Below, piece after piece: positions 7,613 to 20,404 of a DNA stretch of 21,835 nucleotides (positions are counted from its first letter, which is position 1; every line of letters starts with the position of its first letter). This DNA comes from a virus. Its lineage: Duplodnaviria; Heunggongvirae; Uroviricota; Caudoviricetes. Under the pieces are notes generated by a model. It worked only from the letters and a program-made list of their open reading frames with translations. It ran no database searches and was not told the origin of the DNA. Location: IMG/VR virus record IMGVR_UViG_2802429217_000001; one strand, 5' to 3'. The position numbers and the translations under genes were made by a program.

Positions 7613-7968
7613 TACTGGTAATCCCCTTCTTCACCGTGGAACTCAAGATCAACCGTGCCTTCTTCGGCATTATGGTTCGCTTCGCCGTGCAGCCAGGCGG
7701 ACGACAATACATAGACCTGACCGTTCGCCAGCTCTGCAGTGATGGTCATCTCATCAGACGAGGTGATTTTGCTCACCGGAAAATTCTTCGGCACCTTGAA
7801 GGTCCCTTTGACATAAGGCGCACGGTGAGTTTCCTTGCGGTCCACTGAACCGTCCAGGCCGATGATGTCATCATTGACCGTCCTGTTCATGGGCACCTCA
7901 ATGCCGCCGGTCAGCGATAGCTGCTGACCGTCAATTTTGAAATAACAGGTTCCCCCGATACGGGCCAT
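7612..7968 (-). CDS. Tail tube protein
   Basis: 118-aa ORF immediately downstream of the sheath gene (stop/start overlap), upstream of the chaperone. Confidence 0.7.
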   Translation of the reverse strand: MARIGGTCYFKIDGQQLSLTGGIEVPMNRTVNDDIIGLDGSVDRKETHRAPYVKGTFKVPKNFPVSKITSSDEMTITAELANGQVYVLSSAWLHGEANHNAEEGTVDLEFHGEEGDYQ

Positions 7969-9464
7969 TATGCGGACTCCTCTGAATACTGAAGACGGAA
8001 CTGGTTAACCACGGCAAAGACACGCAACTGGTTAACATAGTCAGGCGGGAACAGCGTGTTCAGGCGGTTCGGATCGCTGGCATCACGCTCCACAACCAGG
8101 TACTGCTTAAACAGTTCGTAGTTTTCCACGATCCCCGCACGCTCAAGCTGACGGTAGGTTGCCAGCAGTTCCCCTTTGATCACCGCCGGTGTGACAATCG
8201 CCTGACCGGGACCAAAGCGGGTACCGTCGCTGGCAAGCTTGTGACGCCCGTACTTACTGGTAATGACGGATTTCAGTTTGCGCAGCACATACGCGCTGGT
8301 ATGCAGCGTCTCGCTGTCGAGGTAGCTGTTATCCGCAACACCGTAAGCGTTTTTCCTGTACGTGGTGACATCACGCTGAATGCGCAGCACCCCGCTTTCG
8401 ACATACGCCGTTGCCACGCCATGAGACAGCAGGGTCTGTTGTTCGGTCATCGTGAACCGTTTCCCCTTCGGCGCAGGCAGCATCCCCACCAGCTCACCGG
8501 TCTGCGTGGGACGTGCCGGATCGTTGCGAATAAACACCGCTGCGCGGGCGGTACGGCTTGCCGCCAGCTCGTCGGCAGGCGTCTGGGTCTCTTTTTCGTA
8601 TCCCGCCAGGGTAATGTGCTGCTGGTTAAACTGGTCACCTGCGGTCACCAGTTCTGACAGCGTGCCGATCTTTGCCGTATACACATGACCATACAGCTGA
8701 CGCGCATAGCTCCAGCGACCGCTGGTATCGTTCATCTCGGTCACCAGCGTGTTAACGGAGGCCGTGTCGTTGAACGGCAGGCCGATATAATCAAACGGCT
8801 CATCCGCCATTGCAGCCACCGCGCCGGTGAGAACCGGAGCGCCCGTTCCGGCGGTCCCCGTCGCCACGGCAATCTGTACGCCCGCTGGCAGCACTTCGCC
8901 CCCACCAAAGCCGTAGTAATTGAGGCTGACAGGAATTTCATTCCCGCAAAGCCCCTTATGACGCGCGGTCAGCGTGACCACGCCTGCCGAAGATGAGGCC
9001 GTAAACGGCAGGGCCGGAACGGCATTAATGGCATCCTGGATACTGCCGGCAATCGTCGTGACGTTATCTCCGTTGGTCACCGGTGCCTGCACGCGGGTAC
9101 GTCCCACATAAACATTCACCGTGCCGGTTTCGGTTGCCGCCCCGGTCACCGTCAGCGTAACCGTTGCCGCCGCGCCTGTGGCTTCCGGAACGGCAATCAC
9201 ATACAGCTCGCCAAACGGGTCGGTCTGGCGATAAGCCTCGACCATACGCGCCAGCTGACTTCCCGCACCACAAATCTGGCGTGCATAGTCTGCCGACGGC
9301 ATCAGTACCAGACTGTTGGCAACAATCTCTGCACCGTTATTGGCATGACCAATCAGCAGCGATGCTCCGCTGTCCTGTGCAGTATTCGCCGCCTGGTTAT
9401 CCATTTCCGCATAAAACAACGGAACCAGCGTATTCGACGGAATGGTGTTAAAGCTTATCGTCAT
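7968..9464 (-). CDS. Contractile tail sheath protein
   Basis: 498-aa ORF followed by a roughly 120-aa tube gene, the canonical sheath-tube pair of myovirus-type tails. Confidence 0.8.
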   Translation of the reverse strand: MTISFNTIPSNTLVPLFYAEMDNQAANTAQDSGASLLIGHANNGAEIVANSLVLMPSADYARQICGAGSQLARMVEAYRQTDPFGELYVIAVPEATGAAATVTLTVTGAATETGTVNVYVGRTRVQAPVTNGDNVTTIAGSIQDAINAVPALPFTASSSAGVVTLTARHKGLCGNEIPVSLNYYGFGGGEVLPAGVQIAVATGTAGTGAPVLTGAVAAMADEPFDYIGLPFNDTASVNTLVTEMNDTSGRWSYARQLYGHVYTAKIGTLSELVTAGDQFNQQHITLAGYEKETQTPADELAASRTARAAVFIRNDPARPTQTGELVGMLPAPKGKRFTMTEQQTLLSHGVATAYVESGVLRIQRDVTTYRKNAYGVADNSYLDSETLHTSAYVLRKLKSVITSKYGRHKLASDGTRFGPGQAIVTPAVIKGELLATYRQLERAGIVENYELFKQYLVVERDASDPNRLNTLFPPDYVNQLRVFAVVNQFRLQYSEESA

Positions 9465-13554: not shown

Positions 13555-14737
13555 CGGAGGGTTTCGTGGTCATGTTCATCGGTGTGAGATAGACATCACC
13601 ACCGGGACGCGGATTCATATCTTCCAGGTCGCGGCAGTCATTGGGAGAGTAAATTCCCCAGTTGATCCCGGTGGCGTAGGCTTCAAAACGGGACTTCATA
13701 TCCCCGCGCAGTAACGCCCCGGCGTTAAATTTGGCGTAATAAACGCCCTGCTTACTTTTTCGTACCAGTCCGGTGTTGATCCGCTGTTCGATGCGGGTCA
13801 GATACGGCACCAGTGAATAGTTGATAAATCCCAGCCCCAGCTCTTCGATATTGTTGAAGGTGGCGCGATCGGTGTTCTGCACCATGTGCAACGGCACCCG
13901 GAACAGACGACAGATTTCTTCAAGCTGAAACTTGCGGGTTTCCAGGAACTGGCTGTCCTCGGCGTTCAGCGCCATCGACTTCCAGTCCAGCCCCATCTCA
14001 AGGATCATCGGGCGGTGAGCATTTCCAAGCCCGGTGTGACGCTCCTCAAAATCTTTCTTCAGGCGCTCATAAGCCTGATCTGACAGCGTCTGCTCTGTAC
14101 GCAACACACCCGACGTCACCGCGCCATTGCTGAACAGTCTGGCCCCGTGCTCTTCGGTCGCTGCCGCCAGCGATATTGCCTCGCGGGCATAGGCGATGGG
14201 ATTCAGCCCCACCAGTCCGTCCAGCGTCAGCGTGCGCACATGCCAGATATCCTCCTGGCTCAGTACATCCGTGGAGCCATCCGGGAATGTGACCTGATAG
14301 ACCGGCTCCCAGCTACTGTTAAGCTTCGGTACCACACAGCCGGGATCGACGGGCAGCAGTTCAGCCACTTCGCCAAATGCTTTCACTTTGTAGGCGTAAA
14401 AGTTTCCCCGCAGGCACAGACAGGTGACCACCAGCTCCCAGAACTCCTGCGGCGTCATATAGCCATTGGGATGCGTGGAGATCAGCTTATGCAGACGTTC
14501 GCCAGTGGCTCTCTGCTTCAGGCTGCCGTTCAGGTGATACAGGTTGCAGGGCAACATCCCGACCGACTCCGCCAGCACCCTGACACAGGAAAAAACCGCC
14601 GTCAGTCGCATGGCCCGCTGGCTGCTGATCTGCTTTCCGGTATAGGTGTCGTAGGACAACCCGATAGCATCCGCCAGCTCTGCTGGCGTGGTCACCGGTG
14701 CGTCACTTTTTCGTTGAAATAATCCCGAAAAGAACAC
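13496..14737 (-). CDS. Portal protein, HK97 family
   Basis: 413-aa ORF between the terminase and protease genes; length and position typical. Confidence 0.85.
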   Translation of the reverse strand: MFFSGLFQRKSDAPVTTPAELADAIGLSYDTYTGKQISSQRAMRLTAVFSCVRVLAESVGMLPCNLYHLNGSLKQRATGERLHKLISTHPNGYMTPQEFWELVVTCLCLRGNFYAYKVKAFGEVAELLPVDPGCVVPKLNSSWEPVYQVTFPDGSTDVLSQEDIWHVRTLTLDGLVGLNPIAYAREAISLAAATEEHGARLFSNGAVTSGVLRTEQTLSDQAYERLKKDFEERHTGLGNAHRPMILEMGLDWKSMALNAEDSQFLETRKFQLEEICRLFRVPLHMVQNTDRATFNNIEELGLGFINYSLVPYLTRIEQRINTGLVRKSKQGVYYAKFNAGALLRGDMKSRFEAYATGINWGIYSPNDCRDLEDMNPRPGGDVYLTPMNMTTKPSDGSKAGKQKDNANADETTS

Positions 14738-14919
14738 TATTTACCTCCGCCGACAGACGACTGTGTACGGTCAAGATATCGCGCCACCAGCCACGACCAG
14801 AACAGGCACAACGCCCCGGCAACAACAAACCCCGCCGGGGGATAAATCAGCCAGGCACCATACGCCAGAAAAAGCGCCCCCAGCATGCCCACCAGAGGCG
14901 CGAGAATCAGCATGATCAT
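14737..14919 (-). CDS. Small hydrophobic membrane protein (60 aa)
   Basis: [49 protein letters not shown]...: two predicted TM segments. SD GAGGT 6 nt before the ATG; stop overlaps the portal start. Confidence 0.5.
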
Positions 14920-14930
14920 AATTACCTCAG

Positions 14931-16664
14931 TTAAAGCGAGCGGATCCCATAGGACTCAATGTGGTCAGACAGCGTGTCTTCTTTCTCGTACAGCATGGCT
15001 CTGCCAACCGCCATAATCAGCGCAACTGCACCATCGATTTTGTTTTCCGCCTGCTCTTTGACGGGCTTCACCACATCATCGTTACCCGGAATGGTTTTGC
15101 CGACCACGTTGCCGATACACCAGGTCATGATGGGATTGCCATCATGATGAAAGCGCCCCGATTCAATTGCCGCTTCCAGCTCTTTCATCGGGTCGGACAT
15201 GTTGGTGTAGTTCTGAATGATAGTGATGGGGTTCAGGTCTTCATCAGCAAGGTCATGTGAGAGCCCGGTCGCCCCGAAGGGGTCGATGGGTGACTCGCTG
15301 ACCGGGCTGATTTTGTTCGCCGCTTTGGCCTCTTCGAGGATGTAGCGATAATCCACCTCCGCACCATCGGTAACGGTCAGAACGCCCATTTCCACCCATT
15401 TCTGAAAGCGTTCGGCTGTCCGGCGATCTTCATTTTTCTCGACGCTGTACACCGTGTCATACGGTACCCAGAAACGCGGGGCTACACTGTAGTAATGCGT
15501 TTTACCGTCAATCTCGCGGGTATAAAGTCGCGCCATGCTGTTCATATCCAGTTTACGCGCCAGGTCAAAGGCCAGAATGCACGGCTGCCCCTCGAACTGC
15601 TCAAGGGACAGTGATTTATCCTCGCAGCTCTGCCAGCTCACCAGGTTGAAATACGCCGAACGCGCCGACACCCAGATATTGAGGTGTTTTGTTTTAAAGA
15701 CGTTTGCCAGACGGGCGTTATTTTTCGCGCGCTGTTGCTGACTTAACAAAAACTCACGGTAAACCGACACCCCGATATTCGGGTTGGCTTTTTCCAGCAC
15801 CTGCGGGTCGGTCCAGTCGTCACCTTCGTCAACGGTATAGATGATCCCGAACAGTTCATCGTTGGGTACCGAACCGTTGAGCATCTCGATGACTTCCCGC
15901 CGTTTGTCGTAGCACGGCCCCTCAATGTTGTACCCGGCGGTAGTGATAGCCCACATCAGTGGCTGACGTCGCGCCCCCATCCCGGTAAGCATCGTGGTGT
16001 AAAGCGCATCTGTGGCGTGCTCGTGATATTCATCCACCACCGCACAGTGGGGTGATGAACCATCACCGGGGTTACCGATCAGCGGTTCAAAACGCGCACC
16101 ATCCTCCGGACGGTTCATGTTTGAGGCGTTAACCTCAATCCCGAACGCTTCCGTCAGCATGGGTGTGCGTTTACACATCAGTCTTGCCGGACGAAAGACT
16201 TCCCATGCCTGTTTCTCCGTCGTGGCACCGGAATACACTTCCGCGCCGAACTCGTTATCACAGGCAAAACAATACAGAGCGACACCGGCAGAAATTGCCG
16301 ATTTGCCGTTCTTACGGGGGATTTCGGTATACACCTCACGGAAGCGGCGCAGCCGGGAGCCTTTATTGACCCAGCCAAACGCGCAGCAGATCACAAAGAG
16401 CTGCCACGGCTCCAGCGTGATAGGCATCCTCTTGAATGCCCACTCACCCTTGGTGTGCGGCAACAGCTGAATAAATTTGGCGGCCCGTTCAGCCAGGTCC
16501 TTGTCGAAGCGGTAACGAAACGACTTACTTTTTTCCGCCATCAGGTCATCAAGATGGCGCTGGCAGGCCTGAATCACAAACTGGCAGGCCACAATCTTTC
16601 CGCGCACGACATCACGGGCATACTGATTGGCAGCATTTACGTTGGGGTAAGATTTCCGGCTCAT
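14931..16664 (-). CDS. Terminase large subunit
   Basis: 577-aa ORF with a Walker A-like motif (..[12 protein letters not shown]..) in the N-terminal ATPase part; directly follows the small subunit gene. Confidence 0.9.
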
Positions 16665-17155
16665 GACTCGATGATTTTCAGAAACGGGTTAGTGGCTTTC
16701 TTCTGCCCCGCCAGGCCAATCAGACGCTGGCGGCTGCTGGGGTCGAGTCCGAGCATTGCCCCCGTACTGCTCATCTCGGACTCCTGTTCTTTTTTGGCGG
16801 TCAGCTCCGGATTTTTGACCATACCGCCCATTGCACCGGTGATGGTGTTGCCCTGTCTGGCAATATTTTTCACGGCACGTCGCCAGAACTCATAGGCCAC
16901 ACACCACCGCTCAAGCACCGCGAGGTCAGTCACGCACAGCAGGCCCTGACCGCAGAGTTCTTTGGTTGTCAGTTGCCACATGATCGTGGCGAGAGGGAGA
17001 TCTTCTTCAGCGAACCACTCCGGTGGCTCAACACCTTTGATGGGCGTAAAAACAGGTTCATCTTTATTCAGGGCTCGCTTGCCGGGGTTTCCGGCCAGCG
17101 CCTTGCGCGCCGTTGGCTTGGGGCGACGCCCGGAACGCCCCGCCGTTCCAGCCAT
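16661..17155 (-). CDS. Terminase small subunit
   Basis: ORF immediately upstream of the large subunit with an ATGA-type overlap. Start set at ATG 17155 (SD AGGAG 8 nt upstream) rather than the track's GTG 17164. Confidence 0.75.
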
Positions 17156-17194
17156 ATGCGGCACTCCTGGTTAAATTTCATTTTTCGCGGGTAT

Positions 17195-17254
17195 AAAAAA
17201 ACGATGGGGCGGGCAGTCCGGAAGACGTCAGGCCAAAGGGATTTGACCCGCCCC
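17195..17254 (-). other. GC-rich inverted repeat plus U7 between the HNH and small terminase genes (terminator-like; candidate cos region)
   Basis: Minus-strand arms GGGGCGGG (plus 17247-17254) and CCCGCCCC (plus 17206-17213) around a 33-nt loop containing GACGTC, then AUCG + U7 (plus a-run 17195-17201). Confidence 0.35.
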
Positions 17255-17280
17255 TCCCCTCTGGCAGTGGGAACTGGTTC

Positions 17281-17631
17281 TTACTTCAGCCGTTCACGGG
17301 CCGTCTTCGCCTTATGACACGGCCAGCACAGACTCTGCAGATTATTGTCGGCATCAGTGCCGCCATGCGCTTTAGGGATGATGTGGTCAACGGTTTTTGC
17401 TTCACGCACCACGCCAGCACGCTGGCATAACTGACATAAACCTTTGTCACGCTTCAGCACGCGCGCGCGGATAACGTCCCACTTCGAACCATAACCGCGC
17501 TGATGACGGGACTGACCTGGCTTGTATTGCTTCCAGCCTTCGCTTTTGTGGCTTTCGCAGTAGCCTGAAGGATCTGTGGTGGTATGGCGGCAGCCGCGAA
17601 AACGGCAGGCTTTTGGGGTTCGTGGTGGCAT
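17281..17631 (-). CDS. HNH endonuclease (packaging-associated)
   Basis: 116-aa ORF with Cys pairs and the motif ..VDHIIPKAHGGTDADNNLQSLCWPCHKAKT..; located directly upstream of the terminase genes. Confidence 0.85.
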   Translation of the reverse strand: MPPRTPKACRFRGCRHTTTDPSGYCESHKSEGWKQYKPGQSRHQRGYGSKWDVIRARVLKRDKGLCQLCQRAGVVREAKTVDHIIPKAHGGTDADNNLQSLCWPCHKAKTARERLK

Positions 17632-17733
17632 TTAAAGTGGGATCTAACTCTAATAATTTAAAAAATTTAATTGGGTCTTGATATTAATCACATAGACTCA
17701 ATGCTCTTTAGTTCTTACATAGGTGGTTGTATT

Positions 17734-18174
17734 ATGAGTATCCCCAGTTTAGATGTTCATAAAGTTGTTAAGTGCGCGGAGCATAAAAAGGCTTTAGATG
17801 CAATATCTCTCAAACTTAAGAATAACATTATTGACTCAAGCACTGAATGCGATTTTCTTGGCGACACAATAATTTTCAATCAAGATAAAAAAAATAGGTT
17901 AACCCTCAAACTTTCAACATATGAACTAGAACTTATTTTCAAAGAAACACTGCTGATCATTGATGACGCTCCTGTATTGAAGTTTGCTGCCATTGACCCA
18001 ACCGATGAAAATAACAACGAGTTGATTGATTTATTTTTATCCAAAAATGGATTTATTTATATTAGAGAATACAAATCCGAGCAACGTTATGAATATGGCG
18101 ACACTTCTCTATTTTTACATATACTTGACGCTACTCTTAAAGAGCTTAAAGCTGCAAACAAAATATCCTATTAA
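17734..18174 (+). CDS. Hypothetical protein, AT-rich cargo (moron) gene on the opposite strand
   Basis: Plus-strand ORF in a conspicuously AT-rich island between the Rz and HNH genes. Start set at ATG 17734 (SD AGGTGG, about 7-nt spacer; product MSIPSLDVHK..., 146 aa) rather than the track's TTG 17671. No recognisable family. Confidence 0.5.
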   Translation: MSIPSLDVHKVVKCAEHKKALDAISLKLKNNIIDSSTECDFLGDTIIFNQDKKNRLTLKLSTYELELIFKETLLIIDDAPVLKFAAIDPTDENNNELIDLFLSKNGFIYIREYKSEQRYEYGDTSLFLHILDATLKELKAANKISY

Positions 18175-18352
18175 ATAAATTTTTGCTAACATAGCCCCTC
18201 GCCATGACAAGATTTTCTGTTCTAGATGCAAGGGCTATGTGTGAATATCTATAAACAAAAACCCCATCCGGTGATTTTTGTCATTTTTTAGCCATCTCAA
18301 TTGCGGCATCAAAAAGTCGTTCAAGAATAAAATCAGGGTACTGTAATTTTTC

Positions 18353-18595
18353 TTACTCGATATGAAGCTTATAAATTTTTCTTCCCCACTCCCATTTAAA
18401 ATCAAATCCAGAAGCAGAAGGTGCGAAATGTATTTTAGCTTTAGGGTTAGCGTAACCAGCAACAGTCAACACATCAAACTTAAAATCTTGAGGTTTAATA
18501 CGCATAGTCATATCCTTTACCAAGTTCATCATTATTCTTCGCGAGAATAAAACAATGAATAAAATCATTAAAGCATAGACGTTAAATATCCTCAA
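18353..18595 (-). CDS. Small hypothetical protein, start uncertain
   Basis: 80-aa ORF from a TTG start with a hydrophobic N-terminus (ALMILFIVLF). Alternative start at ATG 18505 (SD AAGGA, 7-nt spacer) gives a 50-aa product MRIKPQDFKFDVLTVAGYANPKAKIHFAPSASGFDFKWEWG.... AT-rich. Confidence 0.3.
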   Translation of the reverse strand: MRIFNVYALMILFIVLFSRRIMMNLVKDMTMRIKPQDFKFDVLTVAGYANPKAKIHFAPSASGFDFKWEWGRKIYKLHIE

Positions 18596-18602
18596 AATGT
18601 GA

Positions 18603-19064
18603 TTAGTTGGGACATTGCGTCCTGATATACTCCTGCAAGTAATTCACCTGTGAGGTTATCTTGTCGATTCCACTTCGGAGACGGTAATAATGGAGTTCAG
18701 CATCTGCTGTAAGTCTAGGGCTTTCTCCATCGCCCATGCCGCTGGCTCCGGTCGTTGACTTTGCACAGGTGGCGGCGACTTGCAGGCGCTTACGACCAGC
18801 AGAAACATCAGCACGGAGACTTTCGATAGTCGCGTTAGCATCAGCAAGCTCCTTTGTATATCTGGCATCGAGTTCTGCTACGTCACGTTGACGCTTCTGC
18901 ATATCAGAGATCGTCGCCATAGCCGAATCTAATGCCATAGCGTTTTCGTCGCGCTGTTTTTTGTATTCAATGGCTTTATTGTGGTAATGATTAGCTGACC
19001 AGACAAGACCACCAGCAATACAAGCAATAAACGTTAAAATGAGCGCCCAATAACTCATCTTCAT
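18603..19064 (-). CDS. Rz: Rz i-spanin
   Basis: 153-aa ORF with an N-terminal TM segment (YWALILTFIACIAGGLVW) and ..NHYHNKAIEYKKQRDENA..MQKRQRDVAELDARYTKELADA.., closely resembling lambda Rz as I recall it. Start overlaps the endolysin stop. Confidence 0.85.
   Translation of the reverse strand: MKMSYWALILTFIACIAGGLVWSANHYHNKAIEYKKQRDENAMALDSAMATISDMQKRQRDVAELDARYTKELADANATIESLRADVSAGRKRLQVAATCAKSTTGASGMGDGESPRLTADAELHYYRLRSGIDKITSQVNYLQEYIRTQCPN
18656..18841 (-). CDS. Rz1: Rz1 o-spanin lipoprotein, embedded in Rz in the +1 frame
   Basis: MLTRLSKVSVLMFLLVVSAC-KSPPPVQSQRPEPAAW...: signal peptide with lipobox VSAC followed by a Pro-rich segment. SD AAGGAG 7 nt before ATG 18841. Lies entirely inside Rz. 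Confidence 0.75.
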   Translation of the reverse strand: MLTRLSKVSVLMFLLVVSACKSPPPVQSQRPEPAAWAMEKALDLQQMLNSIITVSEVESTR

Positions 19065-19675
19065 ACCAGCAGCGCCGCCCGCGCCTTGTTGTATCGAACC
19101 TTACGATCCTCAATACCGTTCAGACCGCCGTTAATGATGCGCGTAACACGATTAATATCGGCACCGTAGACCATGCAGCCTTTAGATGTGTAGAACCATG
19201 CAGCTGAGCGCGCGGCCTGTAGCTCCTGCTCCAGTTGTTCAGGTGAGGTCACCAGATCTAACTTCAGCGCCGCGCCACAGATGCGATAATTATGGAGGCC
19301 AGTGATTTGAATTAATCCTCTACCGCGATATTTCCAGCCATCACCGGGTGCTTTGTTACCCAGCCGGTTGCTATACACCAGATTGGCAATAGCATCCTGA
19401 CGAGCTGCATGTCCGGATGTTCTGCCAAGGGCATCAGCCTGCTGCTGTGTGATCCTCTTTCCGAACGTCGCCACCAGCGCAGATGGCGTGTAATTAAAAT
19501 TTTCAACTACGGCGCTAAACCCCATCGACTCATGGCCTACCTGAGCGATAAACATCGCCTGATCCGCTGGTGCTGTAATGCCGAATTCCTTCATCGCCGC
19601 ATCAATGTGCGGAAACCAGCGCGCAGCCAGCCCGGCGCTAATACCAGCCGCCTTTTGAAATAATTGTTGGTTCAT
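19061..19675 (-). CDS. Endolysin, glycoside hydrolase family 19 (chitinase-like lysozyme)
   Basis: 204-aa ORF with ..FIAQVGHESMGFS.. and ..YRGRGLIQITGLHNY..; sits between the holin-like genes and Rz. Confidence 0.85.
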   Translation of the reverse strand: MNQQLFQKAAGISAGLAARWFPHIDAAMKEFGITAPADQAMFIAQVGHESMGFSAVVENFNYTPSALVATFGKRITQQQADALGRTSGHAARQDAIANLVYSNRLGNKAPGDGWKYRGRGLIQITGLHNYRICGAALKLDLVTSPEQLEQELQAARSAAWFYTSKGCMVYGADINRVTRIINGGLNGIEDRKVRYNKARAALLV

Positions 19676-19956
19676 TAGTGCCTCAGATGATCAACCAGAC
19701 GTGCAACGTTGCCTCTGACGGCCACCAGCACGGAAAGAAAAATAGTGTTCGCCACGATAATGGGCCATGAGGAATGGGGATAAATCCCACAGAGATAGGC
19801 CAACGGAACAGCACTGTATGTAACAGTAATCAGCCAGGCTAAACGTGAAACCCAAGGACGATGCCGCGAATCACCACGACGATAAAACATCAGAGTAATA
19901 ACAACACAAGCACATAACAGCGCATTTATAGTTGCTGTCGGGTCATTTAGCTCCAC
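19675..19956 (-). CDS. Holin-like / lysis membrane protein (93 aa)
   Basis: Small protein with 2-3 hydrophobic segments, GTG start with SD GGAGG 5-6 nt upstream; overlaps both neighbours. Holin versus antiholin not resolvable. Confidence 0.5.
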   Translation of the reverse strand: MELNDPTATINALLCACVVITLMFYRRGDSRHRPWVSRLAWLITVTYSAVPLAYLCGIYPHSSWPIIVANTIFLSVLVAVRGNVARLVDHLRH

Positions 19957-20329
19957 CTGAACCTCCCCGGCGCGTTATAAGCGCCACCAGCGAACCGATA
20001 TCCTGGTTATTCAGAAACGTCAGGATTTTAACGGCTAAAGCAGAGACGATTACGGCACCAATAGCATCCAGAGGTTTATCACTGTATCCGGTCAAGTTTG
20101 CCAGCTTGGAGCCAACCAACCCAGAGCAAAGGATCCCAGCAATATATGACACGATAAAATATGCCAGTCGACGCGATGCACTCAGATCTGCTGCTGTTGC
20201 TATATAGAATACAGCCCCTGCAAATGCGCCAAATACAACGCCGTAATCAGTTCCGGTCAGCAGTCCATAAATACTAGCGCCCGTTAGGGCTCCACCAGCT
20301 AACCCTGTGCCGGAAATCGGATCGGACAT
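19943..20329 (-). CDS. Putative holin (about 128 aa, multi-TM)
   Basis: MSDPISGTGLAGGALTGASIYGLL... with 3-4 Gly/Ala-rich hydrophobic segments and a charged C-terminus. Start set at ATG 20329 (SD GAGGTGG); the track's start at 20395 would span two hairpins and a U-tract. Confidence 0.55.
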   Translation of the reverse strand: MSDPISGTGLAGGALTGASIYGLLTGTDYGVVFGAFAGAVFYIATAADLSASRRLAYFIVSYIAGILCSGLVGSKLANLTGYSDKPLDAIGAVIVSALAVKILTFLNNQDIGSLVALITRRGGSGGAK

Positions 20330-20380
20330 TAGCCACCTCTTATTGCAGTGAGTCCTCTCAGAAATAGAAATGAGAGGAAT

Positions 20381-20404
20381 AAAAAAGGCCACCATTTGGC
20401 AGCC
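20381..20404 (-). terminator. Rho-independent terminator between the cargo gene and the holin
   Basis: Minus-strand GGCUGCC-AAAU-GGUGGCC (two G-U pairs; plus 20387-20404) followed by U6 (plus a-run 20381-20386). A second hairpin CCUCUCA-N10-UGAGAGG (plus 20354-20377) follows. Confidence 0.5.

Follow-up and report, generated by a model that had tools for sequence, protein, structure and literature searches.

The question raised by this locus is what occupies the gap of 125 nt between an HNH endonuclease gene and the adjoining small terminase gene. The locus lies in IMG/VR virus record IMGVR_UViG_2802429217_000001, a stretch of 21,835 nt that is referred to here, at its full length, as the window. 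A preliminary description of this DNA had noted that an HNH gene adjoins the terminase genes. The HNH gene (17281-17631), the small terminase (TerS) gene (16661-17155) and the large terminase (TerL) gene (14931-16664) do stand side by side on the minus strand, which is the late strand, and all three are recognised by Pfam. The same description had placed a candidate cohesive-end (cos) site between the HNH and small terminase genes, and had also read the gap as a structured element and as a possible terminator. The host element is a temperate myovirus prophage of E. coli of the SfV/SfI kind, with head and packaging genes of the HK97 type. The gap very probably holds its cos site, at 17171-17260, which acts as duplex DNA rather than as a hairpin.

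Over terS, the window shares 98-99% identity with the serotype-converting Shigella flexneri phages SfV, SfI, SfII and SfIV, and it has the same gene order, HNH, cos, TerS of the P27 family, and TerL. The ends of SfI virion DNA have been determined by direct sequencing; set against the prophage, they left a 10-nt gap, 5'-TGCCCGCCCC-3', which was taken by the authors as cos (PMC3636060). This decamer is identical to the late strand of the window at 17215-17206. The SfI record ends in GGACTGCCCGCCCC, and SfI base 1 corresponds to window position 17205. The signature common to SfV and SfI, which consists of GGAC, the decamer, and ATCG followed by seven T residues, is found at 17219-17195, 50 nt upstream of the terS ATG. 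From GGAC through the decamer to the terS start, the window matches the SfV record, whereas a few bases differ from SfI in the upstream spacer. The predicted cohesive end of the window thus comprises the late strand of 17206-17215; at the right end of the virion DNA, it would protrude as a 3' overhang of 10 nt. The run-off reads left a gap and not an overlap, which suggests recessed 5' ends and therefore 3' overhangs. The window differs from the SfI and SfV group in being an E. coli prophage, and in the region preceding the HNH gene, which holds an AT-rich island and another lysis cassette. The element is present in 1125 of 5426 complete E. coli genomes, about a fifth, mostly at 90-99% identity. 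A literature search by the cos decamers returned only unrelated matches.

The cohesive end belongs to a longer conserved arrangement. Relatives were gathered through the TerS protein and not through the DNA, so that the comparison of the DNA is unbiased. A scan with the single protein gave 80 IMG/VR loci with TerS 99-100% identical, which showed a mosaic junction and were not useful for conservation. An alignment-based scan gave 58 loci in species-representative genomes, and their TerS identity ranges from 30% to 99%. Their hosts comprise Enterobacterales, Orbales (Gilliamella), and Burkholderiales (Comamonas, Acidovorax, and others). The 53 distinct sequences among them, anchored on one motif, align over 102 nt nearly gap-free, and all three conserved blocks are kept at fixed spacing.

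Block (i) is the HNH-side, or left-hand, cos element at 17240-17260 (minus strand). It consists of the G-box AGGGGAGGGGCGGG at 17260-17247 and TCAAATC at 17246-17240, and has the form GGGGAGGGGnGGG plus TCAAATC in the relatives; it is also found in HK97 and in Bacillus phage Gamma. A spacer of 21 nt follows at 17219-17239, between TCAAATC and GAC. The spacer is variable in sequence and low in information, but its length is constant, with indels in only 4 of the 53 sequences (alignment A2), and it is here that the window and SfI diverge. Block (ii) comprises GGAC and then the GC-rich decamer, YGCCnCCnnn. GGAC lies at 17216-17219 and abuts the cohesive end on its 5' side; joined to the TG that follows, it provides the motif AC/YG, in which the slash marks the edge of the cohesive end. 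This motif is present as AC[CT]G in 50 of the 53 relatives; in the GAC columns, no relative departs from the C, and conservation of the A and the G is 90% or higher. Block (iii), TTTTTTTATACCCGCGAAAAATGAAATTTAA, lies at 17171-17201 just upstream of the TerS start, and has a GC core, CCCGCG, between A/T tracts with the T7 run as its upstream flank. In the relatives it reads ATTTTTATACCCGCGAAAAATGAAATTTAA, and it is nearly invariant even at the TerS identity of 47-50% seen in Comamonas and Acidovorax. Position-weight profiles of blocks (i)-(ii) and of block (iii) were built with the window sequence left out, and each finds one site in the window. The scores are 57.8 bits for blocks (i)-(ii) (next best -3.3) and 55.6 bits for block (iii) (next best 2.3).

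Comparison with defined cos sites of HK97-like phages had been proposed as a check on the candidate. Besides the SfI decamer at 17215-17206, it yields HK97, whose genome end falls in the same alignment column. The HK97 junction of right and left ends comprises GGGGGGGGGATCAAATC, 21 nt, and GACCGCCGCCAAA, followed across the junction by GTTTGAATTT. The left half is therefore alike in the two systems, with a G-run plus TCAAATC, 21 nt, and GAC/CGCCGCC. On this junction, the family profile of blocks (i)-(ii) scores 35.3 bits (next best -13.1, z = 6.9). The profile closes with the final base of the SfI gap, and that column coincides with the final base of the HK97 record. HK97 virion DNA has 3' overhangs of 10 nt (PMC9410871, Figure 1 legend; PMC11331095), and HK97 further resembles the window in its homologous TerL and in an HNH gene that adjoins the terminase genes. 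SfI and HK97 are two independent experimental systems that agree on the alignment columns, and near-identity to them places the predicted cohesive end at window 17215-17206. The candidate cos region is in this way upheld and refined to the base. By homology, the ends would also have 3' polarity, TerS would bind at a corresponding site, and the HNH protein would be required.

Several points weigh against this placement. The virion ends were mapped in SfI and not in the present prophage, which could be defective and of which the window shows a part. The Sanger run-off mapping in SfI is uncertain by about 1 nt. In the GenBank record of SfV (U82619.2, loci L001 and L002 in the present set), the genome is opened 7 nt upstream of where SfI has its gap. 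The break falls between CCTGACGTCT and TCCGGACTGCCCGCCCC, equivalent to window 17222/17223. The SfV cos is said to differ from that of SfI by one base at the 5' end, T versus A (PMC3636060).

The terminase side of the site can be compared with the HK97 TerS site. The minimal HK97 site spans +15 to +29 and contains a C:G core (19-22, with a critical C:G at 21) beside a 9-bp A-tract, and deformability is required (PMC11331095). The numbering of that study was checked and is that of the HK97 record. In the window family, the invariant bases at +16 to +29, counted from 17205, are CCGCG and then AAAAAT, with a T-run on the other flank. Both systems thus have a C:G core beside an A/T tract on the TerS side, at about +15 to +30. 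In contrast, the HK97 TerS-side DNA block has another sequence than that of the window, and HK97 gp1 belongs to another TerS sequence family than the P27 / Terminase_4 protein of the window. No sequence similarity is detectable between these TerS types (nothing by phmmer; hhalign probability 0.2), and Foldseek found nothing.

The two halves of the site have different distributions. When IMG/VR was searched with only the left half (GGTCAAATC-N21-GACYGCC), 121 sites were found, 79 of them with block (iii). About 38 of the 121 carry another right block, TTTTTTCACACCGCCGCAGGTTAGAAAACTTTTTTTT, and the TerS at these loci is also of Terminase_4 but 28% identical to the window TerS. The loci with TTTTTTCACACCGCCGCAGGTTAGAAAACTTTTTTTT (L146, L156, L169, L171, L263, and about 30 more) have an HNH protein of the same zinc-ribbon architecture and the same left half of G-box, TCAAATC, and GACCGCC. 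The right half goes with the lineage of TerS, whereas the left half is independent of it. This suggests that block (iii) is the TerS site and that blocks (i)-(ii) are read by TerL, by the HNH protein, or by both. Block (iii) is accordingly named here as a candidate TerS recognition site, comparable to cosB, on account of its position, its conservation, and its co-variation with the protein.

Some further observations concern the distribution of the site. In the AT-rich contigs L220 and L221, the left half lies upstream of a small-terminase-like gene of the helix-turn-helix (HTH) type. Among the contigs with TerS 99-100% identical (L005-L084), cos is a mosaic junction in the part equivalent to window 17216-17280. 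The terminase side of TTCCGGAC is uniform, with 2 of 78 differing by one base. The HNH side in the same contigs has several allelic types, which include a different HNH 3' end and G-box variants with GGGGGAGG replacing GGGGCGGG. A contig of 5.6 kb labelled 'MAG: Bacillota bacterium' (L085, JAEWTL010000102.1) has a 99% identical TerS and a cos of the E. coli/Shigella type, and is probably a mis-binned enterobacterial contig.

The GC-rich inverted repeat that first drew attention to the gap is present where it had been described, with its 33-nt loop and its U7 tract on the late strand. The two perfect 8-bp arms are GGGGCGGG at 17206-17213 and CCCGCCCC at 17247-17254, and the T7 run occupies 17195-17201 on the minus strand. 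The repeat is not above chance and does not represent a structural element of the site. Of 2000 dinucleotide-preserving shuffles of 17165-17280, 219 (11%) yield a perfect inverted repeat with arms of 8 bp or longer. The late-strand RNA folds at -32.6 kcal/mol against a shuffle mean of -30.4 kcal/mol (z = -0.69), which shows no extra stability, and RNAalifold on the 53 relatives gives 0 consensus pairs. In the same relatives, the 8-bp stem is paired in 70.5% of cells, whereas shuffling the 3' partners among sequences gives 73.6% and all 500 shuffles reach the observed value; sliding the partner by one column leaves 68.9% paired, which is about equal. The terminase-side arm is the cohesive end itself, minus 2 nt, and the HNH-side arm is contained in the separate conserved G-box of block (i). 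Since the arms belong to separate blocks and show no excess pairing among the relatives, their complementarity is that of a G-run facing a C-run and not of a maintained stem. The term 'structured' is thus not borne out by the shuffles, the fold, or the covariation.

A second local dyad around the overhang (columns 46-52 versus 60-66) was considered and rejected, since it is paired in 50.7% of cells, is lineage-specific, and is absent from the window. It is a property of Xenorhabdus prophages (L106-L117, L124, and L125; alignment A2, columns 46-66), in which the cohesive end begins within a dyad of 5-7 bp (for example CCCAAGG...CCTTGGG). T6-T7 follows and gives the locus a terminator-like look, but this is not family-wide.

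It could be argued that the two arms are a symmetric element, either inverted sites for one dimeric protein or a cruciform, which brackets the spacer and takes part in cos recognition. Both arms are conserved as sequence, with an upstream G-rich box and a downstream C-rich end in nearly all relatives, in HK97, and in Gamma, and compensatory change is not required of protein-binding repeats. However, changes in one arm are not followed by the other, as relatives with GGGGGAGG upstream retain CCCGCCCC downstream. The arms are no more complementary than in the shuffle and slide controls, and an equal repeat arises in the 11% of shuffles given above. In addition, one arm is excised as a single-stranded overhang, which a symmetric binding site leaves unexplained. 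A symmetric element is therefore improbable.

The site could instead be an inactive relic, a cos-like sequence without function in a prophage that is defective or is packaged otherwise. The window shows part of the prophage, many E. coli prophages are defective, and a foreign AT-rich island is located just upstream of the HNH gene. In contrast, the packaging and head genes in the window are all full-length open reading frames (ORFs) with strong family matches, and the cos core and the TerS side match the functional phages SfI and SfV. The frequency of the element among complete E. coli genomes and the constraint on its sequence across distant hosts also make a relic very improbable.

The remaining reading is that the repeat and the T7 run are an intrinsic (Rho-independent) terminator or RNA hairpin that separates the lysis and HNH genes from the terminase and head unit. 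An 8-bp G+C stem can be drawn with a U7 run 4 nt later, and the Xenorhabdus prophages L110, L114-L117, and L125 have a different 7-bp dyad flanking the overhang and directly followed by T6-T7; yet the loop is 33 nt against about 3-8 nt in typical terminators, the U run is separated from the stem by four bases (AUCG) against 0-2 nt, a terminator scan detects 0 sites where shuffles would give 1.3, Rfam has no match for the region, the fold and pairing controls are negative, and the T run, shortened to T5 in the majority of relatives, forms part of block (iii), which is conserved as sequence. Lambdoid late transcription is, moreover, Q-antiterminated and reads through cos. A terminator is the least probable of these readings, and this part of the preliminary description does not stand.

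The following scheme is proposed for packaging. TerS, TerL, and the HNH protein would together introduce two staggered nicks in concatemers, one on either side of block (ii). TerS would bind block (iii) and position TerL. The nicks would leave 3' overhangs of 10 nt, and the left end of the virion DNA would start at 17205 and run into terS. Block (i) and the AC/YG edge represent the half that stays constant when TerS changes, and may therefore be read by the TerL nuclease, by the HNH protein, or by both. In the most specific form of the scheme, the HNH protein would nick the non-late (plus) strand at CA^GT between 17215 and 17216 (5'-GGGCA^GTCC-3', the caret marking the nick), and TerL would nick the late strand between 17206 and 17205. 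This assignment of the two nucleases to the two strands is possible but is put forward tentatively.

The assignment depends on polarity and on known nick sites. If the overhang is 3', the nick on the non-late strand must face the 5' edge of the decamer, which is AC/YG; on that strand it would read CR^GT, a site of the Gamma/GVE2 type. Nick sites of cos-adjacent HNH enzymes were measured by Xu and Gupta (PMC3592412). The enzymes of Gamma and GVE2 cut CG^GT (AC^CG on the other strand), that of phi105 cuts YG^GTY (RAC^CR), and that of phi3626 cuts BCG^AY (RT^CGV). These authors did not tie the nick sites to cos, and suggested supercoiling relief, recombination, or restriction (PMC3592412). The Gamma record contains CGCCGCCCC (9 nt) at both ends, and its right end reads GTAC-CGCCGCCCC, so that the edge AC/CG coincides with AC^CG. 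In phi3626, GGT stands before the annotated 3' cohesive end, CGCAGTGTC, and the edge GT/CGC fits RT^CGV.

Other data weigh against the proposed HNH nick. The 7-nt end of phi105, GCGCTCC, is preceded by GGAGACC, which puts RAC^CR 1 nt upstream of the annotated edge. HK97 gp74 and other packaging HNH proteins are reported to be non-specific when alone. A PhageTerm study calls the Wbeta-like ends with CGCCGCCCC 5' overhangs (PMC8878798), at odds with the 3' polarity that phages of this packaging type should have. A 5' overhang would move the nick to the opposite strand.

Taken further, the HNH-side half could be an old cross-phylum module, common to SfV-like phages, HK97, and the Bacillus phages Wbeta and Gamma. 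It would comprise the G-box plus TCAAATC, a fixed distance of 31 nt, and AC/YG as the HNH nick site, and would be joined to interchangeable right halves specific to TerS. Such a module is conceivable, though the odds are rather against it. On Gamma, the family profile of blocks (i)-(ii) scores 25.8 bits in register. Without gaps, the profile fails to recover phi105 or GVE2 and recovers phi3626 weakly; the claim of a shared left half is therefore confined to the proteobacterial group with P27 TerS, HK97, and Gamma. The division of labour between TerL and HNH is still treated as open in the literature of 2024-2026. If the scheme is true, the strand assignment of HNH and TerL at HK97-type cos sites, which is a question left open in the HK97 structural papers (PMC11331095), would be settled.

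The Gamma/Wbeta system (N.phiGamma) resembles the window in its P27-family TerS, in a zinc-ribbon HNH protein of the same architecture, and in its GC-rich end. It has the G-box GGGTAGGGGCGGG plus TCGAAAA at the same 31-nt distance to AC/CG. It differs in having an end of 9 nt and not 10 nt and a Gram-positive host, and the nick specificity was measured for N.phiGamma, whereas that of the window enzyme is predicted. The lambda cos (cosQ-cosN-cosB) follows the same logic, as its nicking site is flanked by a small-subunit binding region on the side of the terminase genes and by a further required element on the other side. It is also located between lysis and terminase genes and is read through by late transcription. 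Lambda has 5' overhangs of 12 nt, gpA alone cuts, IHF and the R sites of cosB are involved, and there is no HNH protein. By homology, the window would instead have 3' overhangs of 10 nt, and it has an HNH partner and an unrelated TerS. The window does not have the Nu1/gpA terminase of a lambda-type cos, as the TerS is of the Terminase_4 / P27 family and the TerL matches HK97 gp2.

The site is a cos of a known kind, with a core that matches the one mapped by experiment in SfI, and is homologous to the HK97 site; as a discovery, it is ordinary. Only the constant left half across phyla, the right half that changes with TerS lineage, and the HNH nick motif at the overhang edge might be new. The packaging origin of the prophage is fixed to the base, with predicted virion ends at 17205/17206 and 17215/17216 and a 10-nt 3' overhang, TGCCCGCCCC, and a spurious call of a structured element or terminator is removed. 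Knowledge of cos is useful for predicting mobilisable DNA, including cos-bearing satellites, for reading PhageTerm-type data, and for linearising assemblies consistently. The three-block architecture and the nick motif at the overhang edge provide a concrete and cheaply testable model of how two nucleases may divide the work at HK97-type cos sites.

The HNH protein is an accessory nuclease of the packaging machine. It has 116 aa and contains an N-terminal zinc ribbon (CxxxxC...CxxH) followed by the HNH domain (Pfam HNH, E 3.6e-16; PHROG 144, E 3.8e-45). Its best solved relative is the HNH protein of Geobacillus virus E2 (5h0m), matched over the full length with E 3.7e-11. The match to HK97 gp74 is to the core, with 45% identity over 42 aa, and the zinc ribbon of the window protein is absent in gp74 (PMC3592412). 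The TerS protein (P27 / Terminase_4, E 2.4e-21) has 164 aa. Its true start is the ATG at 17155, with AGGAG 8 nt upstream, and not the GTG at 17164, and RefSeq has an identical 164-aa protein. TerL is of the HK97 type and contains the Pfam domains TerL_ATPase and TerL_nuclease; its sole relative of solved structure by sequence is HK97 TerL (6z6d, E 4.2e-25). The order on the minus strand is HNH, TerS, TerL, portal, S78 protease, and HK97-fold capsid (Pfam Phage_portal, Peptidase_S78, and Phage_capsid). A contractile tail, like that of the myoviruses SfV and SfI, is indicated by tail sheath domains in 7968-9464.

Several minor features surround these genes. A 60-aa ORF at 14737-14919 (minus) lies between the TerL and portal genes and matches PHROG 502 ('membrane protein', moron category; E 1.8e-27); it is annotated as YmfR in a related E. 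coli prophage. Two holin families are present in neighbouring, slightly overlapping ORFs, Phage_holin_3_7 at 19675-19956 and Phage_holin_8 at 19943-20395 (minus). Downstream of them are a GH19-type endolysin at 19061-19675 and Rz at 18603-19064 (minus). The AT-rich island, of about 1 kb, occupies 17632-18600 between Rz and the HNH gene and has 30-36% G+C, compared with about 55% on either side. It contains an ORF of 146 aa on the opposite strand (17734-18174) that has no Pfam or PHROG match. The island looks like a moron-type insertion in the late operon, and related prophages have other sequence at this place.

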